Below are positions 4,623-43,906 of a stretch of DNA of 64,000 bases, in pieces (position 1 is the first letter of the stretch; each line of letters starts with the position of its first letter). The DNA comes from Balanoglossus misakiensis (Eukaryota; Animalia; Hemichordata), in contig CM082587.2 of the NCBI GenBank assembly GCA_040954595.2, forward strand, positions 10,421,403-10,485,402. The letters run 5' to 3'. The position numbers and the translations under genes were made by a program. Under the pieces are notes generated by a model that saw only the letters and a program-made list of their open reading frames with translations, was not told the origin of the DNA and ran no database searches.

Positions 4623-4654
<32 letters not shown>

Positions 4655-6444: not shown

Positions 6445-6476
<32 letters not shown>

Positions 6477-9496: not shown

Positions 9497-9528
<32 letters not shown>

Positions 9529-10966: not shown

Positions 10967-10998
<32 letters not shown>

Positions 10999-14447: not shown

Positions 14448-14554
14448 TGTGACCGTGATATATTAGTCATATACCACAGTCATATATCATAGTCAAAGAA
14501 AATGCCTTTTTAAAATGTTTTATGCAAAGTTTCAATATACTGGCATAATATAAT

Positions 14555-15627: not shown

Positions 15628-17123
15628 CCAATATAATGTGCTGAGCATTGACAGCTATAACCATCTGCAGTGTTGGTACAGGTACCACCATTCAAACAAG
15701 GCGACATGTACTCGCATATATCAATAACAGAAATAAACGATGTAAACATAAAACCATAATGATCAAATTTGGTCAATATGTTTTTTTTTTGCAAGAAACT
15801 CAAGAAATAGGAAAAGAATATGTAATCAATATATAAGTAAACCCTTCAATTTTTATGCCAAATGTACCTACCTATACAGTCATCCAAACTATTGGCACCT
15901 TCATGCGTTGTACGCAGTCCTGTTGGACATGGGTTGCATTCTCTGGAACCACTCTCATTCTGGTAATAGTGACGGGGACAAAGTACACATGGCTCAAGAC
16001 CAGTGTTGGAATATGAGCCAACTGTGCATTTTTCTGGAAGTTAAATACAAATTGAAATTTTAATATGATGTTGTATCCTGGAAAAGATGAAATGAGGCCA
16101 AAATAAAAAAATATGTGCTGTTCCGATTACCCGACCTACCCTAATTATAACCTGCTGACCCTAAACTTTTTAGAGCTTCGTAAACCCAGAAGTAAAAAAA
16201 AAACATTGTTGTCAAACATACAAAATTTATGAAAATTGCGCAAATCATACGAGAACTATGACGAAATCGCGCACATCACGCAGGACTATGATGTCATTCT
16301 TCTACACTATAGTTTTTTCTGATGTGAAATGCACATTGAGAGCTAAAAAAATCGCAAAATAAAAAAAAATCCTTACCTACCTACCTACCCTATTTCTGAA
16401 AACCATGTAATCGGAACAGCATATACTATTTTTTTGGCCCAATAAAAACTTGGCATTGTAAAATAATCTTCCTACCTTTGCAACTCTCTCCTACAACTGC
16501 TACCCCGTGTGTTGACGTGTCATTTGGGCACAGATGACAATCAGTAGAACCATAATCTGGTTGATAAGATCCTTGCACACATTGTGTACATGGAGCTTTA
16601 CCATCATCTGAGTAATAGCCAGGTTTGCACAACTCTAAAAGTTAAAAAAAGATCACAATTTGACCTTAAACACTATATATTCATAAACTGCATGTACTAT
16701 TTAGTTTTGAATCATCACGTCATAAAAAGATTGAAATCTAGAGAAGTCAATAGCAACACAGTCTTTTTACAATTACATCCAACAGAAGCACCTTGTTTGC
16801 ATGATGTGCGATCTGTAAAATTCAAAGTATTCATGTAATGGCTTTTTTTAAAATCTCGTTTGTACGTGTTACCAAAACCGTATGTGGAATAAAATAAACG
16901 AGTCTGTCAGTCACAGTGCTAGCTCATCAGAGATGATGTGGTATTTGTTATAGACTATTTCTCTTACCAATACAGTCATCTTGACTCTTGCTGTGTTTAT
17001 CGTGTGTACTATAACCTGATGGACAGGTAATGCATGATGTTTGACCAGCGGAATTTTGATAAGATCCAACAGGACAGCTAGCACATTCATCTCCTGTATC
17101 ATAAGTTCCAGCTGTACACGTCA
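15628..17123 (-). CDS. Three Cys-rich GCC/ephrin-receptor-like repeats (16968-17123, 16476-16634, 15872-16033) and an EGF exon (15628-15727)
   Basis: C.SCPVGSYQ...G...C..CP motifs; DICEYMSPCLNGGTCTNTADGYSCQC...YIG. Confidence 0.9.
16095..16440. mobile_element. MITE (Harbinger-like); inverted partial copy at about 20760-21030
   Basis: TIR ggccaaaa..atatgtgctgttccgattac / gtaatcggaacagcatat..ttttggcc. Confidence 0.65.
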
Positions 17124-17435
17124 CTACAATGTAACAGATTAAAAAGACAAAGATGTTTAAAGTGAAGGGGTCATCGCGACACATTTGTTTGTTTATAAAC
17201 ATTATAATGCATCCACAAATCTCTGAAAATAGATAATTCTTAGGATGAATAACAAAGCAGCCAACCGCAGCATAGACTGGGCATGACAGAAACTGAAGAT
17301 CCTAGTAGGTCTTGACGACTGCAGTGGGGTTTGTGCTTGTATTGGAGGACATATTCTCATCAAGGAGGACACCCACGCGGTGGGACAACCTCTTCCCTTT
17401 AACTCATCAAGGCACAGAAGTGACACATATACCAG

Positions 17436-17625
17436 TACAGTAAAAATTGTCTTAACTGAACACCAAATGGACTGAAGAAACTGTTCAGTTTGCAGAGGTG
17501 TTTGGTTTTATAGACTTTCTTTTAACATGGTGTTCTACATGTATGTCGAAGAGACAGGACAATGTGTTTGGTTTAGACAGGTTTCCAGATTCGACAGGGT
17601 TCAGTTTAGACAGGTTTTACTGTAC
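17436..17625. mobile_element. Tc1/mariner-type MITE
   Basis: ta-cagtaaaa...ttttactg-ta termini. Confidence 0.55.
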
Positions 17626-17880
17626 TAATTAAATTATGCATTTTTTCGGAGCAACTGTCTATGAACAATTATATCAGGATAAATTGTGATGATAATGATG
17701 CTGTTTATAAGCTGTTGTGTAAGGTGTATATGCATGTAAGCCTTGGAGATATGTCGAAGCATATGGTACACCAGTATAAGTCACTAGTGGGTTGGGATGA
17801 AAATATTTATAAGTTGACAAGTAATTGACACCATAAACTTAGACTCTTGGTTCAAGGTATATTGGATTGATGATACTTAC

Positions 17881-20365
17881 AACAATAACAGCCACTGAGA
17901 ATCTTTCCAGATGGACAGCAACATCCTGAGAACTCATTAGTTGGGGCTCCTGACAGATTCAATTCTGGACAAGCACCATTTGCCTCGATTTTGATGAGAC
18001 TGTTGAATTGACTGAACTGAGTTGTAATTGCACTCATTATACTATCACCGCAGGTTTGGAGATCTAAACTTGTTGCGTTGTCTGTCTTTGCAAGTAATTT
18101 CATGGCAACTGTTGCATTCACCTACCGGTATGAAAAACACCAAATAGAAAGTTTGGTTTAATGGGTTAAAAGGACAAAATAGCTGTAACTTTTGGCTTTT
18201 TTTCAGTATTTTCTTCCGTGTATCAAACGCTATTTCTTGTTCTACTCCAAACAGCATGTTACTATACCCAGTACTTATCATGTATGCGTGTAACAGCCAT
18301 TGTTATTGTTGACAAAGGAATTCTAGTCTGAAATTAAATTTTGCACAATAACAATGCTGACCATTCACATATATGTTGTGTTGATATTAAGCCAAATGCT
18401 CAACATTTTATGATTCTTCAGGTATTTGAACAAGAAACTGCAGTAGATACACAAAACAAACACACTGAAAACGTAGCAAAAAGATAAAGCTATTATGGAG
18501 CATTTAAAGGGATTATGTTTGATACAATTACAAGACACTGTTTATGTTATTCTACATGTGGATATATAGAGAATCAATGTTTGACCACACACAACTTCCA
18601 TCCTCTTGTAGACGCGACAGTGAAAAAACACGCGAAAAATGAATACCATTCATTCATTTTGGGCGAGTTTTTACTCTCATATCCTACAAACAAGATGGAA
18701 GTTGTGTGTGGTCAAATGATGATTCACTATATATCCACATGTAGAATAACATAAACTGTGTCTTGTATCAAACATAATTAATGGGAAAACGGCAGCGAGC
18801 GAGAGACTTTGTCCCTCCAATAACAAGATAATGCTTCTTAAAAATGACACACCTTGGAGAACCCAACCTTAGGGTAACACATTGTACAATAATGTAACGA
18901 CAGAAATCAAATAAAGGATTACATCAACCTTCTTCTTCAGCATAAAACTGTAAAATTTTCCAGCAGGACAGATAATAATACCTGATTGGAGTCTACTATG
19001 GCCATTGTTGAATAGTCACTTCAACACTGTCTTCAATCGAGTTACACAGGACCGACAACAGTGGTTCAACAGACTGCACAATTCCAAGCAGACTCGACTC
19101 GTAATATGAGATACATTGGTTGGTATCACTTGGAATGGTTATCACAGAGTTGTATACACCTCCCACAGTCAGGCAATAATCTGGAACTTCCTTCTCTGTG
19201 GAAAGATCAATATGGAAGATAATTTAACTTCAGGCCGACTAGTTGAATTGTCAATCGTCAATCCAGTTTTCGCTTTACTAAGCTGGTGAAAAAATCCCAT
19301 TTTTGCTAATCCACTCAAATCTGGACTAGTGCCATCTTCCATGCGGTAATGTAGGTATTGACGGATTATAAAAATGTAGGTATTGACTGATTATAAAAAT
19401 GTAGGTATTGACTGATTATAAAATGATCAGTTTATATAAGGGCACACATAGCAAACTGGAAAACACAAATTCCCTCACATATCAGCAATATACAGAGAAA
19501 ATTTGAACCAACAGTAACACTGAATTAGTTGGTTATTTTGGTTCTTCAAGTTTATTATCTGCATCAGCATTCACATATTATTTTGGGGGCCTAATGAATA
19601 TTGATATGATATCAGTTGAATTTCAATTACGCAAAAATAGATCAGTAGAAGCCCATACACACCAACACAATCAGGTACGTAATTATGGGGTAGCCATGTT
19701 CCACCAATTATGCAGGTGTACATTCCTCCAGGTGAATCAATTTCTTGAATGAAATCATAACCAGCTTGACAGGACAATGCACATGAGAATCCTGAACCCA
19801 GTGGTCCTCCAATGACACGGGTGCAAGTCTTCTGTCCACCTTCTGGTGTAGGTAGTGACCACTCTGGACATGTATCAGCTGAATAACTAAATGAGATGTT
19901 AAAAGGTGAAATGTCTAATGTCTCAAAACAATGCCATATTAACTTCTAAATGTTTAAAGTCTCTGCCACCACTTTTTGCATTATTTTCGAAACTCAACTC
20001 AGTACCAGAAAAACGCTCAAAGCAGCATGCACACAAAAAGTATTATAAAGACAAAAAATCACCACAAACACACAAAAGTATTGAGATTCAAAATTCACCA
20101 AGCGACTAGTGGGCTAGTTTAGCTGAACACTTACGTTGAACAGAAACATCAAATTGACACTGAGCCTGGTTGCCACTGTAATCGGTTGCAGTAACAGTCA
20201 CTGTGATGTAGTTCCTGGTTTCAACTGCAGTTCCATTTGGTGGTTCATATATGACGTCACTGATTCCGTGGTTGTCTACAACAGAGACTGCTGGATATGA
20301 CACATTGTGTTCCACTTCATCAACAAGAATTACGTACGTGTCTGGACAGTCTAGTGGCATGGTAT
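17881..20365 (-). CDS. HYR (20135-20365), sushi (19663-19878) and SEA-like domain (18982-19195, 17881-18121)
   Basis: DCP...V.DNHG...VTVTATDYSGNQAQCQFDV (HYR); CPEWSLPTP..C..C..SCQAGY..C..W..VPDC; KEVPDYC...CPEL...CCCPSG. The 18982-19195 exon is frameshifted. Confidence 0.85.
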
Positions 20366-21039: not shown

Positions 21040-22616
21040 CAATACAAACAGGTGCAGTGCCATTCCATTTAGCATTAGTGAGAAATGATGACTGTTCAGA
21101 TGCATCCCTTCTTTTCCTCACAACTTCCACTGCGGCTGCTGTTGAAATAAGAAGAATTTTTTTTCTGTAAGTAATACTTAATTCATGCTTGTAACACACC
21201 GCTCATAGCATGCATTTACCTGATGACCGTGCCTGTTTATGAAATACACATTACAGAGCCACGAATTTAGTCGATAATAGAAGAAAACTGCTGATTCAGC
21301 ATTTTTCACCAATGGTTTGTCTATGGGCAAATTTTTTTTAATGCAATTTATCTCAAAATAGAGCAAGGTGACCCTTATATTTTAAGTGACCAATGAATTT
21401 ATATTTACTGGACTGAGCTATGTAGAAAATTTTGTGACAATGACAATAGAAGAAGTTTGTTTTCTAGCAATTATCAATGTAATCCTATGGGAAAAAGACG
21501 GGTGCGTGCAGTTTTCCGGTTTATGTTCTGCGCGTACATCCTTAAAAGAAAAGAAGAGATATAAGCGCCACTTTAGTGTGAATAAAAATAATGATTTTAT
21601 ACATACTGCATCTGACATTCTGGAAGAGCTCATATCCTTCAGGACAACAGAATGTTGCATCATCTTCTTGAATTGGGTTTGCAGAAGATGATAGTTCTGG
21701 ACAATTGTCTGAACTGTCAATGGCAACCAAAACTGGAAATACACTTGGATGGTTGGTCAGATAAAAGATTAGTTGAAGACCACATCCCGACAATTCTGCA
21801 TTGTCGTATCCAGGGCTCAATGGGTCTATGGGTTCAATCAGTAAGTTCAGCCCCACATCCATTAAAAGCTGCAGGTAATGAAAATACAGTCATAAGCATT
21901 TGTTTTAAAAGATGTTATGTTTAATATGCTTTATTATTATGCATCTGGCACCAAGAACAATAGAATTTAGCGTGTACTAAAAAGCCATACGGAACGGTAC
22001 GTACGGAACGCGTGTTAAATACCCCTTAAGTTTCAAGGCGCCCCAACTCACCGTGTACAGGTATGTACTAGCTGTTATGCGGATGGTTTCAAGACATCCC
22101 CACTCCAACGCACGTAAACAAAAAAGAAAGATGACTGCTCACTGTTTCAGCTGAGCAGTTTACGATCGATTGTATCGACAAAATTAAACATCGCATGGTT
22201 GTCACATTTGCATGAAAATATTCTCCCAATATGCATTTTTTCTTTGGATATGCAATCTGAAGAGCATGTGAGATAAAATGCTATGAAGTGAACAATTTGT
22301 TGAGTGTAATATTCTAGACTCCAGAAAGAGTCTACAAGATTTTCTGCAAGACTGAAAGAGACAGTTAGAGTACCCACCGAATTATCCGATAGCGAGGTGA
22401 GACTGGTGGTGGATAATGCGATATTGATTGTAACCAGACCAGCAAGAGGAACACATGCTCCTGATGGATCTTGAGACAGGAGTTGAGTTAAACCATTAAC
22501 AAGTTGTGTTGTTATTTCTGTACCATAGTAGTTGCCACAGGATTGCTGGTCTGTAATCTGCCCACTACCATTATATGACACACTAAGCTGTGCACAGTAG
22601 TCAGGAACGTCACGGT
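21040..22616 (-). CDS. SEA-like domain copy (22378-22616, 21607-21868), then RKRR furin-type site and C-terminal half of the split sushi (21040-21138)
   Basis: DRDVPDYC...CPEL...CCPEGY; VVRKRRDA...NAKWNGTAPVCI. Confidence 0.75.
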
Positions 22617-23040
22617 CTGCAAAGTAATTATCGAATAATTGTAAATACAGACCCATACAACTTCTATTCTCTTCAGGTCAATTTGTTCAAAGCATAAATG
22701 GGTTCAACTCTTTGTGGTTTATTCTGATTTTAAATTTAACTGTATTATTACTTCATGGTGTGTATGAAAGATACAAGAAAAAAAAATCACTTTTTGAAAT
22801 AAACATTTCTCTGTTAATTATCAAGTTCTGTTAATTATCGAGAATCCCCTAAAAGTATATATTTTCTGAAAGTAAATATAGGAGAACATTTTGGTGTGAC
22901 CATTGTTTACACAACTATCATGTGACAAGCAATTTAAATTAACTTCCAAAAACAAGTTTTCTGGATGTTTTGTTTTAACACTTTGAGACATCACTCAAAT
23001 ACAACACGTTATCAACCAAACTAAGGGTAATATCTCTTAC

Positions 23041-24264
23041 CTGGTAGTTGAGTTGGAGTTGGTAGGGTCGTAAGACCACCTGTTGTGGCTTTCAGAGTTG
23101 TTGCTGGTTTCGTAGTTGGTTTAGTACTGACATCATGATATACTGTATAAATGAAATTGAATGAATACTTTATATTACACACTGGACATGGGTGTCTATA
23201 TGATAAGAGTGGAAGAGTTATTTGACCAACCGTATACAGATCAATTGCACTGAGCATTGTTATTGCCTCATTTGTGACATAGAGTCTGATTCAAACAACG
23301 ATGATGATGGTAACTAACAATGTATAACTGTTTAACTGTTTACATTAGAGGTATTATGAATTTTTTTTTTCAATTGAAATTTTCACTGTACCCGTACATG
23401 AAGTTTCTATCAATAAAGCCAAATTTTCAATGTTTTATTATTCATAGTTTACTTTATCATAATAGGAAGTAAACCTACATTTCTTTGAAAAAAAAGTGAG
23501 GAGTGAATATGTTTTCTCCTTTCTTCCACCCCTCACCCCCTAAAAATAATGGTGTCATCCAGGAGCTAGAGTCGTGTCAACTAAGTAAACAAGATCCATC
23601 CTTACTTTGGAGCTCATAATGCTGAAAAGTGTAGAAATTCGTATACATTCACCTTTTGATGTTAACAGATCTGTCGGTGCCTCAGTTGTATGTTTTCTTG
23701 TTGTTCTTCTTTGGGAAGTGGCAGTTTCATCAGTTATCATTTGTGTTTGCCATTCTGTGGTGCCTTCTACCGTTTGCCAATATTCTGTGGTGCCGTCCAT
23801 TTTATTTGTTGTCAAAAGTGTCTCTGGTGTGGTGGCGTCCATTTTGTTTGTTGTCAACAATTTCTCTGGTGTGGTCCATGACTCTGTTGGCATCACATCA
23901 CTTGCATCGTCATACTCTGAAGTCTGGTCTGCAGGAGTAATATCCACAGATTCTGCTGTTGACATCATTTCTGTTTTTGAGATCGGAGCAGATGTTGTCT
24001 TGTATGTACCCTCACCTTCTGTGCTTGACTGCTGATCAGGCTTTTCAGAACTTGCCTCTACTGTTGTCACGACAACAGGCATGGTTACTGTAACCATAGT
24101 AACTGTTGTGGTTGACTTGCTTTTTCCAGTTGTCACAGCCGGTATATTGTCTGTGTCCAACACAGTTGTCATTCTGGGCGAAGTTATGGCATATCCATCA
24201 GTTGAGATGCTTTTTTCTGTGCCTTCGGTGTAGGGACTAGTTAAATATTCCAGCGTTGTTTCAT
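23041..24264 (-). CDS. Second mucin-like stalk (exons 23653-24264, 23041-23142)
   Basis: Long Thr/Ser/Glu-rich open frames with ag/gt boundaries. Confidence 0.8.
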
Positions 24265-24810
24265 CTGTTGATAAAAATGAACATTACAATTTGAATAATC
24301 TAGAACAAGGAAATCTAATGTTATATTGTTCTCCACTAACATGAACAGTATTGAATCAATGTTCCTGGCAGGAGACAATTTCAAGGTATTCTCATCCCGG
24401 TGTGTGATTCAAATGATATTGTGTTATTATTCTATTGCTTTCTTTAATGCAATTGTTTATGAGGGTGTTGAGATTTCTTATTCAAAATACAGTAAAATAG
24501 GAAATTTCCACGAACGATAAATTTACTGGTGAAAAAAAAGTCGCTTATGGTTTTCAGAGATAACGATGCAGTGAAATACCAGAACGTGAAAATTAATCGC
24601 CACGTAACAGTTGCCACATTTGATATCATGAACATTTCCTCTTGCGAAAATTTTGCATAAGAGTGTACCAGATATTGGTGTGCAAAACACAATATCAGAT
24701 ATCACAGCTAATGTAACAAATTCAGCTACACTCCATTGAAATCATCAGCAACATTGACCTATGTTATACAGTAAACTAATTACATATTGTATAAAATGAA
24801 ACCATCTTAC

Positions 24811-26337
24811 CTTCAAGCGTACTCTCAATTGTTGTAACTATTCCAAAGTCTGGAAGTGTAGAAACTTCAAGCTCATCATCCTCACAATGTCGAAATTGCT
24901 TGGAGGTGTCAATAATCTCATCAAACTCAAAGTCTGTAACCCTGTAGTTAATTTTACCAGACACCGAATAGACCTTGACATTGAGAGGGGCTTGTATATC
25001 ACCAGAACCAATGGGTGGTTCAAATAAGTTATCACTGAGTCTGTCTAGAGTAATCCAGGGACCAGTTGTGTGGACTTCCACAGTGGTGACAGGGTAACGA
25101 TGATCCAATATTAATAAGCTGAATGATGCAGAAATGCTCTCTGCAAACTAAATAAACAAATCAATCAATCAATATGCAGTACACTAAAAAGATGAACAAC
25201 ACAGTCCCTGGTTGGTCCTAATACTTTGAAATTTAGAGCAAGACTTACTGTAAAATGGGTTATTTTCGCGAGCATAAATTTTCGCAAAATACGCAAGATC
25301 TAAAAGAGACGTGAAAATAAATGTCGTGTGAAATGTTTTTCAGATTTAACAATGCAGTTAGTGAAATACAAGAACGCCAAAATTAATCCTCGCGTAACAG
25401 TTGCCTCTTTTGATATTGCGAAAATTTCCTGGCGTGAAAATTTCCCGTTTTACAGTATTTGCAACAAATCATTGTCAATGACCTAGTCCCCACTGGATCT
25501 TCCCTTGTCCAAATCAGTTGAGACTGGTTTGATTTCCAGGAGATCTAAACTTCCAGTAAAGAAACAGATGAATACTCTTGACAATTTAAACTTCAATATT
25601 ACAAATACTTAAAAAAATGGCTAGGGAGGTTTCAAACAAGTTTGCCAAGATGTGACAATTAAAGACAAGGGTATATAAATTAGTTAATAATTGTGTTGTT
25701 TCACAAACCTTGAACTTGATAGAGACATCCTCAGGACAGGCAACAACTGAGTAGGATACAAGAAGAGATGAAGGACTTTCACCATCTGACAAGATGTTGT
25801 AAGCATCCTGACTTAGAACCAGACCATCTTCATCACTCATGCAGTACGGGTACATGCACATGTCTGTTACCCGGACAACTACAGATACATCATTTGAACC
25901 AATCACGTTCAGGCATTGCCCGCAAACCTGCAATTACACAAACCAAAAAACTCCTTTAGACAACACTGGAAATACTACAGTATGCAGTTTTTTTCAAGTA
26001 CATTTAGTGATTAAATCAATCTTGGGTGAGAAATTTAAAAAAATACAGTGCAACACATAAAACAAGACAAAATAAAATCATTCATAACAATGTTACAAAT
26101 CACAATGAGAAATTGGAGACAATCTGGTCAGTATTGACACTGGAGCAAAACATTTACCGGTACATAGACTTTCAAGAACTAACTTTATACTTACATGTGA
26201 ATCTTGAAAATTGGCCATACCAGCAACCATACTTGTGTAGAATGTTCCAAATGAACAGGTACCATCAGTTGGTGTCTCAATGTACTTCTCACAAGTTGCG
26301 TTTACAAAAGTCTCAAAGGTTCCACAATCTCTACTGA
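24811..26337 (-). CDS. Expansin-like module: DPBB domain plus CBM63-like domain (exons 26195-26337, 25709-25927, 24811-25147)
   Basis: GTCSFG..SMVAGM..CGQCLNVIG..SVVVRVTDMC..GLVLSQDAYNIL..VSYSVVACP..IKFK|..DHRYPVTTVEV..GPWITLDR..DNLF..G..PLNVKV..SG..DTSKQF, colinear with microbial EXLX-type expansins. Confidence 0.85.
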
Positions 26338-27033
26338 CTGTAAAATCAACAACACAATCAGGATATTCTTTGCTGCAAGAAGAGTTAATATCCTAACATG
26401 GGTTTGTGTGGTACATTTTCTAATCTGGTGAAATGTGTTTGTGTGTAAGCTTTTATCATTTATTTACAGGTATGGGACCTTGTACAGTGGTGATATACCA
26501 TCTACAATGAAGACCAATTGATGATGTACAGAAGAGAAATTTCCTGATTTGTGCTGCTTTCTGATACTGAAACACATATCGACTAGCCATGTTCGGATAA
26601 CAGCATACGTTTGTGTCCCCTCGGGAATGCAAATTACCCCCAAAACAATCTGTTTCCATCGGCCTTCAGCCTCTAGAAACAGACTGTTCTGGGTTGACTC
26701 ACAGTCCCTTAGGGAAACAAATGTATGCTGTTGCCCTCACTGCCAGTCAATATGCACAGTTTATCGGTACACACACACATTCAGCAGAAGGCATAATATT
26801 GTTCAGTAATTGCAATGTATATTACTATATATGTGACAATGGGGCAAGACTTGACTAGCGCTATGCTATGTTTCTTGCTCCATATTGCCAATGTAAAAAA
26901 TTAGATATACTGGTATACGGTATTAAGTATTTACCATTTCTCTGCCACAAAATATATTCCTTTCTTAAATTGTGGCAATAAAAGGACAAATACTGATATG
27001 AATACGAATTATACGAATACACAGTATAATTAC

Positions 27034-28090
27034 CTGTTGATACATCATGAGAAGGTGTCACTGGTTTTGTTGTTGATATTTTAGTTGAAAGTGGTGCACT
27101 AGTAGTTTCAGATGTTGTAAATTCTTTATCTGAATCTGTCGTTGGTTTTCTTTCAGTCACAGTGATTGCCTGCGTTGATGGCGCCTCATAACCTGCATAT
27201 GGAAATCAAGTCATTCTGCATTAAAATATGTGAGATTCCATAGATCTCACTAATGATTATTTAATATCAATTATTTAATATAACTATATGATAAATAACT
27301 TGACTGGAATGGAATTTGGATTTTATTGCTACATTTTGCTACACAACCTATTACTGATGTACACACAGAACGTAAACTTGTAAACTGCGCAAATTCGTGC
27401 ACATTTGTCTCTTCGCATGGGATTAGATTGATATAAACTCACTACTGTCATTTTCATGACAATTTAGCTCAGTTAAATGAAAATAAATTCATTGGTCAAA
27501 TAAAATTGTATGGTCACCACAGTCTATTCAGAGATAAATATCGTTAAATGTTTTTGGGTGAAGAAATGCTGACTCAGCTGTTTGTTTGTTTTTCAACTAC
27601 ACAAGGCCATGACTAAATTCAAGCATGGTGACCCCTGTATTATACAGCTTTTCATTATGCTAACAAATGAGAAACCAAAAATCCACAATTAAAAGAAATG
27701 AGATACTTTCACTTCCACTGAGAGGACATCTGTAAAGTAAACTTGTCATATTGTTTTCAGATATTCAGTGGATGTTTGTACTTGACGTACCTGTTGCATC
27801 TCTTGTTTGAGCATCAGTGTGTACTCTTGCCGTCGTGGTTACCAAATCATCTGTGTGTACTTTTGTCGCCGTGGTTGCCACATCATCTGTGTGTACTTTT
27901 GCCGTTGTGGTTACCATGCCATCTGTCTGTGCTCTCTTGGTGGTTCTCATAACATCTGTGTCTGCAGCTGCTGTGGAGATTTTCATCCGCAATGTGGTCA
28001 CTTCTTCCTCTTCTGTTGCCGCTCTATCAGTTCCATCCATTTCTGTCGTCCCAAGCTCTGCAGTTGACATGTCTGTGACCGTTTCCGTTT
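27034..28090 (-). CDS. Thr/Ser-rich mucin-like exons (27791-28090, 27034-27192)
   Basis: Open T-rich frames with 33-bp coding repeats (TTAKVHTDD..), phase 1-1. Confidence 0.8.
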
Positions 28091-28299
28091 CTATGACAAT
28101 GGAGGCAATAGAGGTTATGCTGATTGAATTCTGTTTGTCAAGTTTCACTTCAACATTCAAATAGCTTTTAAAGCCTCTCTGTTGTTTTGGAAGCGGGCAT
28201 TCTGAACCATTTCTCCATATATCACACTACATGAACATAGAAGTTATCACGGTACTGTTTCAGCACACCACGATGTTTATAACAACAGTATATACACAC

Positions 28300-31200
28300 C
28301 AGTAGTTGTAGTAGAAGGTGTTGTTGGCAACACAGTCACAACATCTCCTTCACACATCAAAGGGTTTGGATGGCTTGGTGTGAATCCATAGTCACAACTG
28401 AATGACACTATAGAACCAATGTCGAAATCATTGCCATGTCTCTGACCGTTGACTGGTGTACCAGGATCTTGACATTCTCCTGAGGTCAAGAAGCAAAGTA
28501 TCTTATCAATATTAAATCATCAACTCAGACAGAAGTCATTCCTTACAAAAACATTCTATATACATCATTCTACAGAATTCATTAGCCTTTTGAATTTCTA
28601 TATAAGTTTAAATAATTTCTATGGACATCTATATATTTGTATGTAGTTTTCGAAGTTGCTTAAAATGTTTTTCGGAAATAACGATGCAGTGAAATACAAG
28701 AAAGTGAAAAAGTAGTAGTCGCAGTGTAACAGTCGCCTTTTTTGATATTGCGAAAATGTCTGGCCCAAAAATTCCCCATTTTACACTGTATTCAAACAAC
28801 ACATTGTGTGTGAATGTCATGAATTTCATCAGAGTATAACTATTATCAAACAGAAGTGATTGCTTCTCTGAAAGAAATATTCTTTTCTACGTTACCCTGA
28901 GCAACACATCTTGGTCTGGTGCCATTCCATGTTCCATCTTCAGTGCAATATCTCCTGGTGTTACCAAGTGCTTCATATGCCATGTTACACTGGAGTGTAG
29001 CAACACTATCATACCAAGTGCCATCACTATTCCCATGAGCCATCTTCAATCGCAGTCAACAAACCACAGTCAACACCTAGAAATAATAATAGTGAGTTCT
29101 TATATAGCGCACATATTTTCTTTGAAGTATTGAAGCCTGTTTCTATTGAATTCTATAGAAATGATAGAATCTATAGAATGACAATTCAGAGTTTTGCCGT
29201 GGTGATCTTCGGTACAATATGCATTAAAGTTATGTAGCACTCTTTGATCAACAGTTGAAATTACAGCATGAGCTTGGAATCTTCCACGAGTGCATCTGAA
29301 GAAGGGGACTACATGTTCCCGAAAGCTCATGCTGTAGTTTCAACTGTTGATCAAAGAGTGTTACATAACTTTAATGCGTATTGCAATCTATAGAATGCAA
29401 AAGAATTCTAAGGAATATAAGGTATAGCATTATTCATTCCTGTTACTTACGTTGACAGACAGGAGGAGAGGAATTCCATCGGTAATCACCATCTTGATTG
29501 CTGTAGGTACACACTCTGACATGGCTACCATATAAGTTGTATCCAATGTCACAACTATAGGTCACTTCACTCTGATAGTTGTAGTTGGGATCATTGACCT
29601 CGTAGCTGCCATGATCAATACTCTCTGGTTCACTGCAGACAGCAGCTGTAGAAAATACACGTAGAGTTGAGTTGAAGGAAGAGCCTGGGATAAATCTGTA
29701 ATCACTTTTTAAGGGACAAAGTCTCTCTCTCGCTGCCCTTTTTCCATTAATTATATTTAATACAAGACACCGTTTGTGTTATTCTACATGTGGATATGTA
29801 GTGAATCAACGTTCAACCACACACAACTTCCATACGCCAAATTCTATTGTTCTCGATGTCAGATGTATAATAATATCAAGGTTTTCTGATTAAAAAAAAA
29901 AATATTGACTTACGTGTGCAAGTTGGAAAGTCCGCATCATACTGGCCTTCCACTGTACACAACAGAGTGGACTGTCCATTCAGTTGAAAACCCTCCAAAC
30001 AATAGAATGTAATGGTGCTATTGAACTCCACCAGAATATCACCAGTTTCCTCTATGTTCCAGACTAGGGATCCTTCACGTGGATTTGGAAGTGAAAAATT
30101 CAGCAATTTTTGGGAGAAAAAAAATCTGTGAAATAATTAGTTGAACATTTCCTTCTACAAAACAGTTCAGCTGATATTTTAGAGAAAACAGATGAACATT
30201 TCCAGGAAATGACTGTTTTTAGGTTGTGAATGAACTTAAAAGATAAATTATGATAAAGTTGTGTCAAGGTGATGGCAACACTTATGTCTGTTGAAGAAAA
30301 TTTAAAATTACAAGGAAATTCTGAAAATTTATCCAGATAGTTTGGAATGTGTTAAATGTGAATAGTGACTTGAAGTTACGTTGTATGTGACTGGTTATGT
30401 CTCACCTTTGCATGCTGTTCCATTCACATCCGGTTCAAATCCCACCAGACATGCACACTGATAGTCACCATCTCTATTTTCACAGACTTGATTGATTCCA
30501 CATGGTGCCACCAATGTACTACATTCATTGATATCTGAAATGCTATTCATCAAGATATGATCAAAATCCCAGAGGTCCAAGGGGAAAATTCGGACCAACA
30601 AGTTTAGCTGGGTATTAGACCAACGGGAAATTTTCGCAAACAGTAAATTTTTACGCTAGAGAGCCAAAAAAGACGTAGTGAAAATAAAAATTCGCTTAAA
30701 AATGTTTTTCAGTGATGACAATGCAGTGAAATACGAGAACATGAAACTTAATTGTCTCGTAACAGTTTCTGCTTTTTATATCGCGAAAATTTCCGGTCGC
30801 AAAAATTTCCTGTAGCGATAAAGGGCACTTATATGAGGATATTAAAACTCAGGGGGTGGGGGTGAGGGGTGGGGGAATTGTGCAGTCACGCACTGGTCGA
30901 ACAATTGGAGGTTTTAGAATAATTAATTATCCAAAGATTAGTGGGTGGTCAAACTAATGGAGCAGTCGAATTACTGGAGTGATTACAATAACTCAGGCCA
31001 AAAAATGAAATGTTTCTGGTCAGCGCGCGGGTCACTTGAATAACAGCGCGTCACCCCCATTTTTTTCCTGGTTTGTGGTGGCGGCCACGGCAAACTCAAA
31101 CTGCTTCAACTAGATATAAATCACAGGACACTTTGGGGCGTGTAATCAATGACTGCATGAACAGTGTACATGTGACTATATTGATAAAAACTATAAAACT

Positions 31201-33861
31201 GACGGCCTTCCTCCCTTGAGGGAAATTTTTATTTTTAAATTTGCGTCCCCCCACCAGTTTTTAAAGAAGGGTCTGACCAGAAACATTTCCTTTTTTGGCC
31301 TAATAAGCAGACAACCACATGAAGACGAATCATGATGTGAACTTACCAATGCATGATGGTATTGCATCATTCCACTGTAAATCTGATTGACAAGTCAGGT
31401 AATCAGCACCATTTAATTCATAGCCAGCATCGCAATAGAATGTGATGTTGCTGCCCATATAATATGGTCCACTATCTGGGACAGCTTGTAAATGTTGGTC
31501 TGTTATGAGTATGTCACTGCAGTTTCATCCTGCAAGGAAAAAAAAATAAAACATCTTTATGGATTATGTGGATTCAGACTTGGTTGTGGTATACCGGTAT
31601 GTATCAGGTACCTGTATTGTGAAACAACTTTAACCTTTTCACCCCAAGTTCCCACTATAAAAGTCCAGATACCATAGACTCCTATTATCGACTGAATTCA
31701 TGGCTCTGTATTTCAAAAACAAGCACGGTGACCCGTATATTTTATTACTGATTTTCATTATACATACAAAGGCGAATCCAAAAATCAACAATTAAAAGAA
31801 ATGACCATACTTTCAATTTTAGTGAACGTACATGTCCTTAAATGACTTACGTTGACAGTATCCTGGATCTCCAATCCAAGATCCATCTTCACCACATGTA
31901 GAGACAGTGTAGCCAGTCAGACTGTAGCCAGATGGACATGAGTAGGCAATGGTTGTTCCAAAAACCAATGAATCACCATTAACAATTTCATAAGATAAGT
32001 AGTTGTCTACATTCGGTGGTGGACACTCACGAGCTGTTTGGGTAAGATGAACAGATAACATCACAAGCGTGTTACTACTAGGAAAAAAGTTTAAAGGGAC
32101 ATTACATGTAGCTACAGTAACTTGTAATTGGCTTTATTTTAAGTACTGCAAAATGGGCTATTTTTCGCGAGCAAAACATTTCAGCGAAATACGCGAGAGC
32201 CAAAGAACATGAAAATAAAAAGTCGCGTAAAATGTTTTTCAGAGATAACAATGCAGTTAGTGATATATGAAAACGCGAAAATTAATCCTCGCATAACAGT
32301 TGCCTCTTTCGATATTGCGAAAATTTCCTGTTGCGAAAATAACCTGTTTTAGAGTATTTTTTGTTCTCTGTACCAAATGCAATGTTTTGTTCTACTCCAA
32401 ACAGTAGGCCAATATACCCTGTAAAATCCGTCTCCTACGTGTGCACTACAATGACAGTTTAATTGTTTTCAAAAATATCAACTTACGCTCGCATTGGGGC
32501 ACAAGCGGACCCCAGACACCATCTGCTTGGCATTCCAATGAAGTCACATTATTTATAAACTGATGGCCCTCAATGCATTGATAATAAGCAATTCCACCAT
32601 ACACTGTACTGGTAACATTGGTAAGAATTCCACTGCTGCACTCAGCGGGTCCACCACATGTTATTCCTAAAAAATAAACAACAAATTAGTGTCATTCAAG
32701 TTGTTACTAACAATAGATTCAAGGGACAAATTAAGTCTATCTCGCTGCCCCTTTTTCATTAATCATCTTTGATACAAGACACCATGGTATAGTGAAACAA
32801 CATTCAACCACACACAAATTCCATCCCATTTATAGACACAAGAGTGAAAAACTCGCCAAAATGAATAATCGGTCTCTACCATTTACTCATTTTGGCGAGA
32901 TTTTTACTCTCATTACTCAACAGTATGGAAGTTGTGTGTGGTCGAACGTTGATTCACTATAAATGTATACCCACATGTAGAATAACATAAACGGTGTCTT
33001 GTATCAAACATAATTCATGGAAAAGGGCAGTGAGTGAGACTTTGTCGCTTTAAATGTTCATAAAATATAAGTTAGATTGAATCATATCTTCACATTAATA
33101 ATTCCCATCACAGAAATTTTATAGCTACACACAACATGACACCTGTACGAGAAGTCATTAATTCCTACATGAGTTACAGTTCACATTGAGACGACTTTAG
33201 TTTTCTCCTAAACTTGACTGAACTGTGGAACAGGAAATGTAGGCTTGTTTACGCACTGGAAATCAACAGGCAATGGGTTTCTAAAAATGTTTTTTTTTTC
33301 TTCTGAAAGAGTGACCTCAAAGCTACCAAATTATGTAGAAATTAGCTGGACCCCTTCTACTGGATTCGGTCCTACCAATTCTTTACTATCAATCACGTGA
33401 TCTGGCCATGTGACCCACGGTGTTGTCATTTACAGATGACGGGCAAACAATATTTCGGCATCCAGTAAAAGTTTTTCCGAGTATGTTTTTACTTTAGAAC
33501 TACCAGACACGTAACATGTATCAGGTATGGTGCCTCATCAGCCTCATGGCGTTTCATCTGCACTGTCTTTGTCTGCACCAAGTTGTTGATGTTGCCCGTC
33601 ATCTGGAAATTTGAATGCCAACGGAACTGCGTCAGACGTTATTTGATATCGAAGAATAGTGCACTATTGCCTTACTTTGACATGCTGGTAACTTGAGAGG
33701 ATCCTCTTCATTCCAGTTTCCACCAAAGAGACAAGTGAGAGAAGAGACAGTACCAGACACTTTCTGATAACCATCCAAGCATTGGAATGAGACAGTGACA
33801 TCATAGCTTCTATCATCTTTACTGGTCACCACGCCCTCACCAATCACAATTTCGGGACAGT
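28300..33861 (-). CDS. Sushi/CCP repeats and one calcium-binding EGF (exons 33676-33861, 32487-32666, 31851-32033, 31347-31529, 30406-30534, 29914-~30091, 29451-29645, 28896-29076, 28300-28479)
   Basis: C..P....G...F.C..GY.L.G....C...G.W....P.C pattern in phase 1-1 exons; DINEC...CENRDGDYQCAC..GF for the EGF. Confidence 0.9.
29181..29384 (+). mobile_element. Short Penelope-like insertion with inverted arms
   Basis: 13-bp TSD aatctatagaatg (29168-29180 and 29385-29397); about 60-bp inverted arms (about 29216-29276 vs 29323-29383). Confidence 0.7.
29292..29332 (+). ncRNA. Minimal type I hammerhead ribozyme
   Basis: GCAU-CUGAAGAA-GGGGAC(UACAU)GUUCCC-GAAA-GC-UC-AUGC: stem I GCAU/AUGC, 6-bp stem II, both core boxes, short palindromic stem III. 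Confidence 0.75.
30995..31301. mobile_element. MITE (Harbinger-like)
   Basis: TIR aggccaaaaaa.gaaatgtttctggtcag / ctgaccagaaacatttccttttttggcct. Confidence 0.7.
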
Positions 33862-35030
33862 CTGTCAGAACAAGGATCACAATGATAAGAATGCATGCAG
33901 ACAAATACTTTGACTCATAAATGTGAGGGGTCGTCGTGCCGCATTTGTATGTTTATTATCCAGTGTTTCCTCTGGGTTTCAAAATCTTCTAGCAATTTGG
34001 CTAAAAGACATGAAAATTTACTAGCCAAACTTGACTTTGCATTAGCCAAACCAATGCTGCCGCAACAGCTGATTCGGAGGGGGGGGGGGTGTCACAAAAT
34101 TAACAGAATCAGGGCTTCAAATTAAGCTTTGACTGATTGCCTTGGGCAACTAAATATTGATGCACTGTATGTTTAACTTATGTTGGTGGTTCTTGATGAC
34201 AAGTTCACAAGTATTTTGTAAGGAGACTTAGGGTGTTTGCCTGCTGTTGGTCCTTGTTCGTCTTCATGTTTTTGTTTGTTTTGTTTTTTTGAAAATTGAC
34301 CCAACAGGCAAATAGAGAATGTCTGAGTTTGATAGTGAATATTGAAGTGTATTTATTTTTTTCCTTCTCTTTATATTGAGAGATGAACTTGATATATACG
34401 CTCATAATTGAGACAAGAGATATTGTGGATACTGTTGCTGGTTGATTTTCAATAAAACAATATAAAAAAAAAAACTTTAAAAAAAATATTGATGCAGGGC
34501 ATGTAAATTGTCAACCTAACTTGCACGTTTGGGCAGCCAAAAAATTACGTACTCCACTATGCACGGCCAGCTTTTGACGGGCAAGCCACTACACTAGCGT
34601 TTCTAAACAGAGAAACTTCCATAACAACCTGTACACTTGACGCGTTCCAGTCAAGGCAGACCTAAAATGTATCAATTTGTAAGCATAACCCATTCAAAAT
34701 ATGCAAATTGGGAAAAGACGCACATGCATTCTTTGCGTCCCCAGAGACACACACAGGAAATCAAGCGAGTGCGACCACTAGCTGGAAGAGCTGAATTCAA
34801 TGCATTGCCTTACGATGTTCATGATATACAGGGGGTGATGATCAATGAACAGAACAACGGTCCACTTTCACGCGTTGTAGTGCAGTGAACTCGCGCTGAT
34901 CATGGCACAAGAAACGACGATGTTAGATAGCAGTGCTTCGCAAGTTTGGCTAATTTGTATGAAAATCGTCTTGCCAAACACAATTTTTTACTCGCATTTG
35001 CGATTTGGCGAGCGGGTAGCGGAAACACTG

Positions 35031-35776
35031 ATTATCATATGCCTATATTCACGTGCCCACGTAAAGTCTATGGGGAAAAGCGCCCTCACATCCGTGCAGT
35101 TTTTTTGCTTATCACGCCCCGGCCCGGTGACCATATTTGGAAGACGCGTTCAATATCCGGATCTAGTTTTGTGTTTATTGCGCGAGATTCGAAAGTTGTC
35201 ATTGCTACGTTCGGAATTAAATTTTTCTGGTGCGGTGTCAGTGACTAGTGCACTTGCAGTGTGTGTATGTCCTATGCCGCTACCGAATCCCATCATCTTC
35301 CGTAATCGCTGCATGTTGTAGAGCTTTATTTGGAAATATGAATAGTCAAATTGATGATTTGATTTGATTAATGTGTGACTGTCGGCGTCGATCGTCGCAA
35401 AGAAAAAATGTTTTGCTCGCGCTCGGCTCTGTGAGTTCGAGCGCGTCTATATCTCACGTGCAATAGAATATAAACAAATGACATCGTGCATATCAATCCG
35501 CAAGAACTGGAGGAATGCGCCTCTATGCTCCGGGATAGATCATTCCAAAACGATAGATAAACACATAATATTTACATTCCAAAATATTACAGAATGTGTA
35601 TTTTATTAGTTTCTTGTAGATTATCGTTCAATAAGGCATATGATAAAACCTTTACGGCCCTGATACGGGTTTTGCGGCCATCGGTCGTACGACGATTCCC
35701 GCCCTCCCTGCGGTCAGGCGCTTCCGCCGTACGACCTCGGGCCACAAAACCCGTATCAGGGCCGTAAAGATTATAA
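35031..35776. mobile_element. Non-autonomous long-hairpin element (putative Crypton-type)
   Basis: Short IR ttatcatatgcc (35032-35043) / ggcatatgataa (35635-35646) followed by a palindrome at 35650-35769. Confidence 0.55.
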
Positions 35777-35952
35777 ACATTACAATTCATCCACAAGTCC
35801 CTGAAATTAGATCATTCTTAGAATGAACGAAGCATATTCAAAAATCTTTCCACCTTTCACTTAATGACTCTAAATCATAAGGAATAAAGGGAGTGCGTGT
35901 TTCTAAGAATTCTGTAACATCCTTTTCTGAAATGTTAGTAAGTTATGTATAC

Positions 35953-38900
35953 CTGGTGAAAATGACGCCCTGAATCCTTTAGCTGGTCGTGTTCTACTAC
36001 TCCTGAACACAACCGAAAAGTGTCCAATGTCTGTACGGCAATCGGGTGGTGGTAATGTGCCATCAATGACTTCATCAGAATTGCCACTCCATGGACCAAT
36101 AATGACATCATCATCACTCTCAGTACCATTGTATACCTTCAGAAACAAAGACAAATTAAGCATGCATTGTAAATACCGTAAAACGGGAAATCTTCACAAC
36201 AGGAAATTTTCGCGATATCAAAGGTGGCTACTGTTACACAACAATTAATTTTCACATTGTCATATTTTACTGCATAGTTATCTCCGAAAAAAACATTTTA
36301 TACGACTCTTTATTTTCATGTTTTTTGGCTCTCACGTAGTTTGCGAAAAATTATCATTCACGAAAATGTCCCGTTTTACAGTATTCAATCCTTGTTGCAT
36401 TTCCTGCTGTAACAGCTACTCAAATACTGTAAAACGGGAAATTTTCGCAAATGATAAATTTTCGTGAACTATGCGAGAGCCATCAAAACGTATAAAATAA
36501 AAAGTAGCATAAAAATGTTTTTCAGGGATAATGATGCAGTGAAATACAAGAACGCGAAAATTTCATGTTGCAAAAGTTTACCGTTTTACAGTATATATGT
36601 GTTTAATTGAATTTCAAAATTGTGTTCCAAAGTTGTATAGTTTGAAGTAATGTCTGCCAAAATTGTCAAACTAAAATCACTGCAAAATAATATGACAAAA
36701 TTTTGTCAGCATTAAAGGGACAAAGTCTCTCTCTCTCTGCCCTTTTTCCATTAATTATGTTTGATACAAGACACTGTTTATGTTATTCTACCTGTGGATA
36801 TATAGATACATTTGTAATCAACCTTCGACCACAAACAACTTCCATCCCATTTGTAGGGTATGAGAGTAAAAACTCGCCCAAAATGAATAAACAGTAATAA
36901 CCGATTATTCATTTTGGCGAGTTTTTCACTCTTGTGTCTACAAGTGGGATGGAAGTTGTATGTGGTTGAACGTTCATTCACTACATATCCACATGTAGAA
37001 TAACACAAACGGTGTCTTGTATCAACATAATTAATGGAAAAAGGGCAGCGGGAGAGAGACTTTGTCCCTTTAACATGGCTGACTCCTGATCATATCTGAT
37101 ACTTACAATGATGTAATCAACATCTGTGTTCCTCTCTAATCCAAAGTTGTCATCAAAGATAAGAGTTAATGGTCTTCCAGTTGGTTCCTTGATTACCCAG
37201 CTACACATAACATCATCAGGGTAAGTGCTAACATCATAGCCTGGTGACTGAATCGTACCAAAACTACGCAGAATTTCAATTCCCTGGCAACCTTTGAAGA
37301 AAAAATACCAAACAAGAAATAATTAATTCAATCCACAGGTTTGGTGTAATCCTGGCTGCCTTTTATTTCGTGCTAGGGGATCAAATCACATAATAATTGC
37401 CTTCTGGATAAAAAGTCGTAAGCGATAGAAGAAATGACTGTTAACTGTATTTTATGACTTCCTTAGGTCAAACATTTCTGTCGTTATACATGTAGTTAGC
37501 AAATTAAACTCATTTAACTTTTTTCACATTTTGTTATTTTTTCTGTTGAAGGGTCTCTCTCCAGCTGCCCCTTTTCCATTAATTATGTTTGATACAAGAC
37601 ACTGGTTATGTTAAAGCCCCAGTATTTCTCGTGTGTATCCATTTTTCATCATCGAAAAATGCCCGTTTTTCCCGTACATTCATCATGGAATACTACATAA
37701 TGAAGATAGAAGAAAGGTTTGGGCTACGTGCAAGCTGTAAATATTGCCCGTAACACTTGAAATGATGCGCGGGTTTGTTTACAACGGAAATGTTGTACAT
37801 GTCGATCAGCAAACGTGCCACTTTGACATTTGATGGTCAGACCATTTTCGGATTTGATCTGGTTCCATCGACTGATTTCTCCCATAAAGTTATCTTCCCA
37901 AAATTTCGCCGAATTAGTGCGCATTTCTTCGCTGAGTCGCTTGATTTGGGGCGACCAAACCTCTTCCGCATAGATTCACATTTGAGTGCGCATGCGCAGT
38001 AGTCACGTGTGTCAACAGAGCCTGACTTTCTGTCCGGACAGAAAGTCATTCTTCACTCGTTATATTGTAAATTGTATGAGTTTATTAGCAGAGCTGGGGA
38101 TGATGACTGTTCGATTCAGTATCAATTATCATCTACTTTTAGAAATTATAGATGCCGTTTCAAACAAAATTTTGCCCCTACGAGAAATACTGAGGCTTTA
38201 ATGTAAATGTGGATATATAGTTAATCAATGATCAACCACACAAAACTTCCATCCCACTTGTATGATATGAGAGTAAAAACTCGCCCAAAATGAATAAATG
38301 GTAAAGAACGATTATTCATTTTGGCGAGTTTTTTCACTCTCCTGTCTATAAGAGGGATGGAAGTTGTGTGTGGTTGAACGTTCATTCACTATATATCCAC
38401 ATGTAGAATAACAAACAGTGTCTTGTATCAAATATAATTAATGGAAAAAAATGCAGCGAGAGAGAGACTTTGTCCCTTTAAAAAGTTCCATAATGACCCA
38501 GTATCAGATTAGCTTATAAACCTTCAGAAAGAATGGCAAAGGAAGATATATTTGTGATCCTTACAATTCCCACTGGGTTGAAATTCTTTGGGAAGGATTT
38601 TAAGTGATTTAAAGGGACAAAGTTTCTCTCTCTCGCTGCCCTTTTTCCATTAACTATGTTTGATACAAGACACTGTTTATGTTATTCTACATGTGGATAT
38701 ATAGTGAATGAACATTCAACCACGCACAACTTCCATCCCGTTTGTAGGATATGAGAGTAAAAATCTTGCCAAAATGAATAAACGGTAGAGACCGATTTTT
38801 CATTTTGGCGAGTTTTTTCACTCTTATGTCTACAAGTGGGATGGAAGTTGTGTGTGGTTGAATGTTCATTCACTATATATCCACATGTAGAATAACATAA

Positions 38901-41900: not shown

Positions 41901-42160
41901 AACTTTTTAATACAGGTGTCCAGTTTATTTCATAGAGGTTCCTTTAAAATTGTGTTTGTACGACGAATGGATGGGAAAAGGTGTTCTGTATAGGCAGGTT
42001 TCCAGATTAGACAAGTTTTACTGTACCTCAAAATTTATTCTGGATGTTGCAGGTCCCTGGATTGTCCAAATACATTCTTGTAGAATGTAATAATTATCAT
42101 CTGGGTATCCAGTGCTGTGAAAGGTCCCTGAGACACCAGTTTCCAAACCACCACATGTTC
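35953..42160 (-). CDS. Three CUB domains (exons 42027-42160, 40433-40634, 40054-40205, 39047-39248, 37107-37291, 35953-36136)
   Basis: CGG...HSTGYP...ECIWTI; FLSD...GFEASW; VDFKSD...RGFHAHY; CSWVI...GFRASF. In-frame TAA at 40072-40074. Confidence 0.9.
36173..36593. mobile_element. Two adjacent copies of a ~200 bp TA-flanked MITE family (others near 24490, 25246, 28650, 30620, 32143, 42471)
   Basis: ta-c(t/c)gtaaaacgggaaattttcgc ... gcgaaaatttcccgttttacag-ta. Confidence 0.7.
36715..37069. mobile_element. TTAA-flanked MITE family, Kolobok-like (others near 18505, 29711, 32720, 37550-38480, 38612, 39363)
   Basis: ttaa-agggacaaagtctctctc ... gagagactttgtccct-ttaa with long internal inverted arms. 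Confidence 0.7.
37615..38197. mobile_element. Kolobok-like non-autonomous element nested in a MITE
   Basis: TTAA TSD; TIR agcc(c/t)cagtatttctcgt. Confidence 0.75.
40854..41680 (+). mobile_element. 5'-truncated L1/Tx1-clade LINE (zf-RVT C-terminus)
   Basis: FQFKLLHNILYTN...CDLC...ESIDHLFHSC...LW; aataaa at 41649; poly(A) tail; 18-bp TSD atcttctcattgaaatat (40836-40853, 41681-41698). Confidence 0.92.
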
Positions 42161-42942
42161 CTGAACATCATCAAAATAAAAAGAAAGGGTTTATTTGTGT
42201 GATGAATGGTCATAAAGCTTCAGCTCTTCAAGTTGAAGAAATTTCATTGATGATAAAATTACTTCACCAACAGTGAGTATCCAATGTACATGTATAAAAC
42301 AAATTTTATATTAGTATAAATCAAATGTAAAATTTTGAAACAACATTTATCACACCCGAAAATTCCAAGAACAGCATATTATTATTCTCTAAGCTCAAAC
42401 TATCAGTGTGAAAGATGCCAGATTCTTAAAATACTTGACCCAGTTTTGTTTCTGATTTATAATTATGAAATACTGTAAAACAGGAAATTTTTCGTGATAT
42501 CAAAAGTGACAACTTTTATGCGATGATTAATTTTCAAATTCTCATTTTTCACTGCATTGTTATCTTCGAAAAACATTTTTACACAACTTGTTTATTTTCG
42601 TGTTTTTTGGCTCTCGCATAGTTCGTGAAATATTTATAGCTCGCGAAAATTTCCTGTTTTACAGTACGAAATTCTTTGAGGATCAGAATTTCTGCTGACA
42701 GTTCAAAAGTAGTCTGTAGTTGCAAAGGAGATGTACAAATAATTATGGTCTGGTAGTTTGAGGTTGGCACATATCAGTTGTCATGCATATTTACAAGATT
42801 CTTTTGTATAATGACTTCAAGCCAAAACTACACTATACCACACATTTAGGAAACTTGGTCTCATCACCTGGGCCCACTTTGCAATGATGTTGAGGTGAGC
42901 GTAGAGAATATGATTGTTTCAGACCACTTGCCAAAAACATAC

Positions 42943-43047
42943 CTGCACATCCAATCTCATCAGAGAAATCACCATCACCACAGTCAACTGTACCATCACA
43001 AACCCAGTCAGGATTTATACAATTACCATTGGAGCATCGAAAGTCAC
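42943..43047 (-). CDS. LDL-receptor class A exon
   Basis: [35 protein letters not shown], flanked by ag/gt. Confidence 0.9.
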
Positions 43048-43818: not shown

Positions 43819-43906
43819 AGTGTAGGGAAGTGACCACAGCAGTGTGAGAAAAGTAAAGACCTGATGCTAGTAAGGGCAGATTCTAGTTGATTTGAATCAG
43901 ACTTAC

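Follow-up and report, generated by a model that had tools for sequence, protein, structure and literature searches.

A putatively cleavable insertion slot within a sushi domain of Uninflatable-like proteins

Surface proteins that are cleaved yet stay associated, such as Notch with its S1 furin site and the SEA-domain mucins, are processed in a loop that leaves two chains on one shared domain. SVEP1 and SRPX are built of sushi-HYR-sushi-GCC-EGF-pentraxin modules, with sushi domains that are not known to be interrupted. Here we describe a gene of the acorn worm Balanoglossus misakiensis that resembles SVEP1 and SRPX in its modules but has one sushi (CCP) domain split by a very large loop. In contrast to Notch and the mucins, the two chains would share a sushi domain, in which a covalent link is predicted, and whole domains are carried in the loop. 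The gene lies on the minus strand of a stretch of 64,000 nucleotides (nt) (GenBank assembly GCA_040954595.2, contig CM082587.2, positions 10,421,403 to 10,485,402), hereafter the window. We found no description of a split sushi slot in the open-access literature searched: the available portions of PMC13178913, PMC7444548, PMC4729200, 10.1101/229468 and PMC3927616 do not describe it, and PMC13114784 mentions neither sushi nor CCP.

Drosophila Uninflatable (Uif) is described as a single-pass apical protein with a CLECT domain, three CUB, eight CCP, two FA58C and three HYR domains and an EGF array (PMC3340373); Xie 2012 lists two FA58C domains for it. The top two relatives of the window gene are models of one uncharacterised Saccoglossus kowalevskii locus, LOC100378937 (XP_077862127.1 and UniRef100_A0ABM0MZ98), and XP_077862127.1 is collinear with the window exon by exon (tblastn). 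This ortholog shares with Uif three CUB and about eight CCP domains, HYR, an EGF array and a single membrane span, and possibly a lectin-like N-terminus; the window lacks the 3' third of the gene. Unlike Uif, the ortholog has two HYR domains and no F5/8 (FA58C) match at E up to 5, and we therefore class it as Uif-like rather than as Uif. With the CCP9 exon as query, a HMMER search gave 47 proteins; none of the 20 scanned (those of at least 300 aa) bears FA58C, and a nematode fragment begins at HYR. A preliminary description of this DNA had placed the insect FA58C domain inside the sushi loop that precedes HYR, a placement that we treat as an assumption.

A sushi domain divided between distant exons

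An exon model built from splice sites and open frames gives an intron-rich animal gene with the domain order CTL-like, LDLa, three CUB, CCP1-4, EGF, CCP5-7, split CCP8, HYR, CCP9, SEA-like unit, three GCC and EGF (Table 1). The CTL-like label of the N-terminal exon is presumptive and follows sequence motifs; Pfam Lectin_C matches neither this exon nor the Saccoglossus ortholog. Joined together, the 11 exons from 28479 to 21040 encode 894 aa with no stop and with canonical splice sites. The Pfam Sushi match of the first of these exons (28479-28300), which holds cysteines C1 to C3, ends short of the W..C part of the profile; the last (21138-21040) supplies W..P.C, such that all four sushi cysteines and the tryptophan before C4 are present across two exons, and they are conserved in homologs. 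Nine exons totalling 2403 nt lie between the halves, with 842 aa from C3 to the tryptophan. The preliminary description had counted 2373 nt; its order of mucin, expansin, mucin and SEA-like parts with RKRR stands. Phase-1 ends bound both half-sushi exons and each of the modules that lie between the two (1-1 symmetric exon sets).

Against the sushi profile, the joined halves score 30.9 bits over all 58 positions. The W..C strand can be taken as settled as the closure of this sushi because WNGTAPVC likewise precedes HYR in the ortholog. There are 3 cysteines in the N-terminal half, 18 in the insert and 1 in the C-terminal half, leaving C2 and C4 without other partners, and the parity fits predicted C1-C3 and C2-C4 disulfides. 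The preliminary description had proposed modelling the two segments together, and we did so with AlphaFold2 on ortholog residues 1038-1351, the form with a 121-aa loop, using a 9-row alignment. Both sushi halves have pLDDT 86-96 and the loop is below 50. Foldseek alignments, of about 105-120 columns, are no test of closure, whereas the VIA search is one: it places model residues 60..235 on CD55 SCR4 (2qzd) with Z 8.3 and rmsd 1.5 A over 63 of 65 residues, and two-CCP structures align over model residues 1..234. Hence, the halves are predicted to fold as one CCP.

A different closure would have the W..C strand complete a local pseudo-sushi formed with the tail of the SEA-like unit (CPEL..CCPEGYEL..C), making the upstream half a truncated domain. 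The tail is weakly like the C2-C3 part of a sushi (10.4 bits). However, the local arrangement reaches 10.9 bits over 19 of 58 positions as against 30.9 bits over 58 for the joined halves, the SEA-like tail recurs downstream with no W..C after that copy, and short-loop homologs have the N-terminal half and W..C with no SEA-like unit between. We rejected the local pseudo-sushi on the profile scores and regard it as scarcely credible and close to refuted. We conclude that this is very probably one CCP split by an insertion slot. The preliminary description had read it in the same way, from an N-terminal half without its W..C end and WNGTAPVC 7 kb on before HYR, and the homologs agree. The possibility of two separate genes was also rejected, the ortholog being one record.

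Filling of the slot and its variation among relatives

The ortholog matches the window in domain order, in the split sushi, in the mucin, expansin and SEA-like filling, and in RKRR and WNGTAPVC before HYR, with 54% identity over 439 downstream columns. It differs in being intact, with an EGF array, LamG/pentraxin and a membrane anchor, and in its loop: the 4825-aa model of LOC100378937 has three expansin repeats and a loop of 1819 aa, and the 3097-aa model has a loop of 121 aa with a short mucin stretch and RKRR only, compared with one expansin and 842 aa in the window. A motif tally over 54 proteins gave 14 rows from 11 loci, 10 of them in the Uif-like family; unrelated repeat proteins (P0012, P0023, P0036, P0046) and plain sushi arrays (P0014, P0019) were left out, as was P0048, which shows the W..C-HYR motif in another architecture whose sushi is intact. 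Both halves are present at six loci, with loops of 8 aa (XP_013402106.1, which we take to be from Lingula), 32 aa (a Saccoglossus paralog), 35 aa (Glandiceps), 38 and 954 aa (two Ptychodera paralogs) and 121 or 1819 aa (LOC100378937). Four partial records (Owenia, Solemya, Nucella and Anneissia) lack the N-terminal half and have non-sushi sequence before the closing strand. The content thus differs between orthologs and between paralogs, in line with the variable filling first proposed, and these sequences indicate that the slot is a family feature of Uif-like proteins. That proposal had one lectin head swapped for another, which is too narrow, since the fillings observed are mostly non-lectin.

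Two of these fillings have features of their own. In Ptychodera XP_070544274.1 (P0045), whose accession adjoins that of the paralog with the 38-aa loop, the slot spans about 950 aa (residues ~383-1336), contains cysteines, is visibly repeated, has its basic sites on the N-side of the loop, and matches no Pfam family. In Owenia (P0054, residues 1-137) RKKR and the W..C strand follow a stretch rich in Cys that ends in CC...CN; this stretch has no Pfam match and resembles a Ly6/three-finger module. Word-index protein searches returned only bacterial HYR proteins or nothing useful.

The window gene carries the two domains of an expansin, DPBB followed by a CBM63-like D2, and in the ortholog DPBB_1 passes the cut-off. 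Matches of a whole ortholog repeat to solved expansins have E values of 8.5e-10 to 5e-6, the microbial EXLX1/YoaJ proteins, which share the DPBB plus CBM63 order, falling at 8.5e-10 to 1.3e-6. Unlike the microbial proteins, the copy here lies inside an animal membrane protein, is spread over three exons and has changed equivalents of D82, W125, W126 and Y157. A survey of expansins regarded animal copies as unconfirmed and possibly contamination (bioRxiv 10.1101/637728), and the present locus bears on that open point. Three spliced exons within an animal multidomain gene, together with the Saccoglossus ortholog, identify by sequence a genuine animal expansin-fold domain, apparently repurposed. 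Contamination as its source was rejected on the introns and the ortholog.

Loosening by EXLX1 requires D82, whereas its contacts with cellulose are made by W125, W126 and Y157 (PMC5072189). The D82 position is Val, and the other three positions are non-aromatic, in all four copies compared (the window and 3/3 Saccoglossus repeats); the fold is retained, and the classic function is probably lost. The "carbohydrate-binding head" of the preliminary description is unsupported in this light, all four of these residues being changed. An active cellulose-binding or wall-loosening head that replaced a discoidin would agree with the presence of both domains in order and with the habit of acorn worms of feeding via mucus on microbe-rich particles (PMC4729200), but it is improbable given the substitutions at residues needed in EXLX1, even though one bacterial expansin has Leu at position 82 (PMC5072189). 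The expansin is most likely a module for adhesion or recognition that lacks loosening activity and extends into mucus, and not a cellulose binder. A glycan ligand other than cellulose, for example peptidoglycan or chitin, is conceivable, and we propose it with some doubt. For the first expansin exon there are two candidate acceptors, AAG at 26367 and CAG at 26372, and the frame is kept either way. The stronger CAG acceptor would go with a possible 34-nt micro-exon (26501-26468, minus strand, AG / GTAAAT). A contig from another sample matches both flanking expansin exons around window positions 25940-26189, with a different 270-letter intron stretch.

On either side of the expansin are stalks rich in Ser and Thr (31-42% S+T), as had been noted. 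The in-loop SEA-like unit is a duplicate of the gene's own unit after CCP9. "SEA-like" is the label of the preliminary description; the unit has no Pfam SEA match and no PDB match with a 2-row profile. Records from two molluscs, Nucella (P0024, residues 1-500) and Solemya (P0020, residues 1-117), likewise contain the downstream SEA-like unit, in copies that immediately precede RX[KR]R and W..C, at E 3e-5 to 7e-3. Since such copies occur in both molluscs, the SEA-like part of the filling may be old.

Probable processing of the loop

RKRR is the sole RX[KR]R in the 894-aa window stretch, and the seven long ectodomains have 0-3 such motifs each. Of the 10 family loci, 8 have the motif in or before the loop and 6 have it no more than 30 residues from the tryptophan, and it recurs in hemichordate, crinoid, mollusc and annelid records; the furin-type site first reported for this loop is therefore a recurrent one. 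In the ortholog model the motif stretch is predicted to be disordered, placing R-X-[KR]-R in a predicted exposed loop. From these observations, furin quite probably cuts the loop. A slot that is real but whose basic motif is unused, or serves to trim a linker, would leave the cargo as a closed loop and the slot as a tolerant surface hairpin. This would account for the two loci of ten without the motif, including that with the 32-aa loop, and we found no cleavage data; for Uif, the accessible text goes no further than a "presumed cleavage site" (PMC12867482). We consider the closed loop unlikely, because an otherwise rare motif recurs in a predicted-disordered stretch in these four groups. A second basic cluster (RRRKR-type) occupies one equivalent membrane-proximal place in six of seven long homologs (P0004 2606, P0015 2600, P0025 1637, P0045 2859, P0024 2051, P0038 2203), a region absent from the window. 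By its sequence it is likely a furin site, and possibly corresponds to the presumed site of Uif.

Putting these results together, the reading that we favour as likely is a loop of variable length and content in the sushi before the first HYR, probably cut by furin at RKRR, with the two chains joined by the predicted C2-C4 disulfide, and a window copy that is probably a pseudogene or null allele (see below). As the protein folds in the endoplasmic reticulum, the insert would bulge out as a loop from between two neighbouring strands, and furin in the Golgi would then open the loop, which would act as an internal terminus. The C2-C4 disulfide would tie the N-terminal lectin/CUB/CCP arm and the cargo to the membrane-anchored chain. 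Where the site is at the C-terminal end of the loop (the window, Saccoglossus, two molluscs and the annelid), the cargo would become a free-ended O-glycosylated arm on the N-terminal chain; in the window, the SEA-like unit would form the end of this arm, and the expansin fold, midway along it, would serve for adhesion or recognition in mucus. Cargo would have been gained through a phase-1 intron inside the loop, since every cassette module is 1-1 symmetric and one is copied from a downstream unit; class 1-1 insertion into phase-1 introns is a known route of exon shuffling (PMC3927616). An opened loop that behaves as a terminus could accept symmetric exon sets of any size. Basic sites are already present in loops of 35-38 aa, suggesting that a cleavable loop probably preceded the cargo.

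Several points weigh against this reading. Splicing, cleavage and the disulfide are all predictions from DNA or protein sequence and a model. Seen from the window alone, the W..C strand is suggestive and not unique, as 1 of 825 scored control loop 11-mers beats the closing strand. The fold was predicted with the ortholog's 121-aa loop and not with one of 842 aa, its pTM is 0.49, AlphaFold2 may close the domain through familiarity with sushi folds, and a single-sequence control fold of an empty-loop protein was uninformative (pLDDT 36). The basic motif is absent from the 8-aa and 32-aa loops (two loci, P0013/P0051 and P0026), and cleavage is therefore not obligatory. At 4 of 10 loci the N-terminal half falls outside the record and the filling is deduced, all long fillings are automatic gene models, and the long loop of the ortholog has an odd number of cysteines (31). 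The homolog tree has no well-supported branch (0/9 inner branches starred).

We conclude that Uif-like proteins have a family-wide insertion slot, the loop of which is probably cleaved. A sushi of about 60 residues that hosts up to 1,800 is an unusual domain insertion, and the loci form a natural series from an empty to a huge loop, with a testable reason for the tolerance, namely that a cleaved loop acts as a terminus. The slot points to a place where processing of Uif-family proteins may occur, and to a way in which the outer arm could be either kept tethered or shed. More tentatively, and rather less likely than not to hold in full, a furin-opened sushi loop may be an ancient bilaterian disulfide-clamped internal terminus that each lineage fills on its own, with cargo unrelated to that of the others. 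Insects would carry a discoidin there, acorn worms a microbial-type expansin that has been domesticated and sits on mucin stalks, molluscs repeats of the SEA-like kind and Ptychodera novel helical repeats. Exon skipping may switch cargo on and off within one gene.

State of the window copy and neighbouring elements

Outside the 2.7-kb region of the split sushi and its loop, the window copy has two stops, two frameshifts and one deletion of about 90 aa, with its introns kept (Table 1). The preliminary description had rightly recognised the split sushi, the slot and the furin motif but had overlooked these lesions. Going by the sequence, translation would halt far upstream of the slot, at the first stop (TAA, in CUB2). 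Two parts of the ortholog, its first 77 residues and its last ~1330 with the membrane anchor, are unmatched in the window, and could lie beyond it. We conclude that the window copy is probably a pseudogene or null allele in which the split anatomy is kept, making the Saccoglossus gene the better object of study. There are zero lesions in the 2682 nt of the split region, for which P is ~0.05-0.09 at the outside rate; this counts slightly against uniform decay.

If the window gene were instead functional, the stops and frameshifts would be assembly errors or a minor haplotype. Both frameshifts are at short homopolymers, the 2.7-kb region is fully open, and a contig from another sample (one contig, depth 3.6) diverges exactly at the repeat edge, 30339, which means that at least the repeat lesion may be haplotype-specific. 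However, two nonsense substitutions and a loss of ~90 aa beside a repeat are atypical of consensus errors, and a tandem array stands where the unmatched 3' third of the gene is expected, although that part could lie outside the window. A functional gene is accordingly the less likely state. The comparison sample consists of low-depth DNA contigs from one sample; among the 40 listed of 168 differences, 11 are in modelled exons, with 5 codons residue-changing and 4 not, which is uninformative on selection.

Table 1. Features of the gene and its lesions in the window (positions count from the first letter of the window)
Feature	Position	Strand	Evidence
Upstream exons: CTL-like, LDLa, CUB x3, CCP1-4, EGF, CCP5-7	28896..44674	-	Collinear tblastn to Saccoglossus XP_077862127.1; Pfam LDLa, CUB, Sushi
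Sushi (CCP8) N-terminal half: C1, C2, C3, then start of mucin stalk	28300..28479	-	180 nt, AG/GT, phase 1-1; Pfam Sushi 1-46/56, E 6.9e-6; 60% identity to ortholog
Mucin-like exon 1	27791..28090	-	31% S+T, no Cys, phase 1-1
Mucin-like exon 2	27034..27192	-	42% S+T
Expansin-like exon 1 (start of D1)	26195..26372	-	Aligns to ortholog repeats; covered by another sample's contig, neighbouring intron different
Expansin-like exon 2 (DPBB core; D82 position Val)	25709..25927	-	Pfam DPBB_1 E 0.0023, below cut-off; sole PDB match EXLX1 7wvr, E 0.53; 44-45% to ortholog repeats
Expansin-like exon 3 (D2, CBM63-like; aromatic platform lost)	24811..25147	-	PDB YoaJ E 0.009; Atlas best match Expansin_C 0.88, a lead only
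Mucin-like exon 3	23653..24264	-	35% S+T
Mucin-like exon 4	23041..23142	-	35% S+T, 15% P
SEA-like unit, first exon	22378..22616	-	30% to exon 19193-19011; homolog profile matches in-loop unit, E 2e-11
SEA-like unit, second exon	21607..21868	-	35% to exon 18121-17882; 50% to ortholog
Furin-type RKRR and sushi C-terminal half (W..P.C, C4; WNGTAPVC)	21040..21138	-	99 nt, phase 1-1; ortholog with same motifs; predicted CCP completion
HYR domain after split sushi	20135..20365	-	Pfam HYR E 1.7e-7
Downstream exons: CCP9, SEA-like b, GCC (ephrin-receptor-like) x3, EGF	15628..19878	-	Sequence, Pfam, tblastn to ortholog
In-frame TAA in CUB2 exon (ortholog Gln)	40072..40074	-	tblastn against ortholog
In-frame TGA, start of CCP4 exon	31525..31527	-	Sequence, comparison with ortholog
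Interspersed repeat cutting into CCP5	30091..30337		69% to 44906-45138; ortholog 868-960 (second EGF, linker, CCP5 start with C1; ~90 aa) unmatched
Frameshift in CCP7 exon (181 nt), ~29033	29028..29038	-	tblastn frame change
Frameshift near end of SEA-like b1 exon, ~19011	19005..19016	-	Comparison with ortholog

The tandem array occupies window positions 3200-14450; it has a 1406-bp period between ~8 and 14.4 kb with internal repeats of ~238 bp, and related repeats are found from 3.2 kb. Two other minus-strand frames were seen in the window. One, at 61146-63872, is an LTR retrotransposon frame, open over 909 aa, with reverse transcriptase (RT), RNase H and integrase. The other, at 55948-56841, is YqaJ-like / alkaline exonuclease and is probably part of a DNA transposon.

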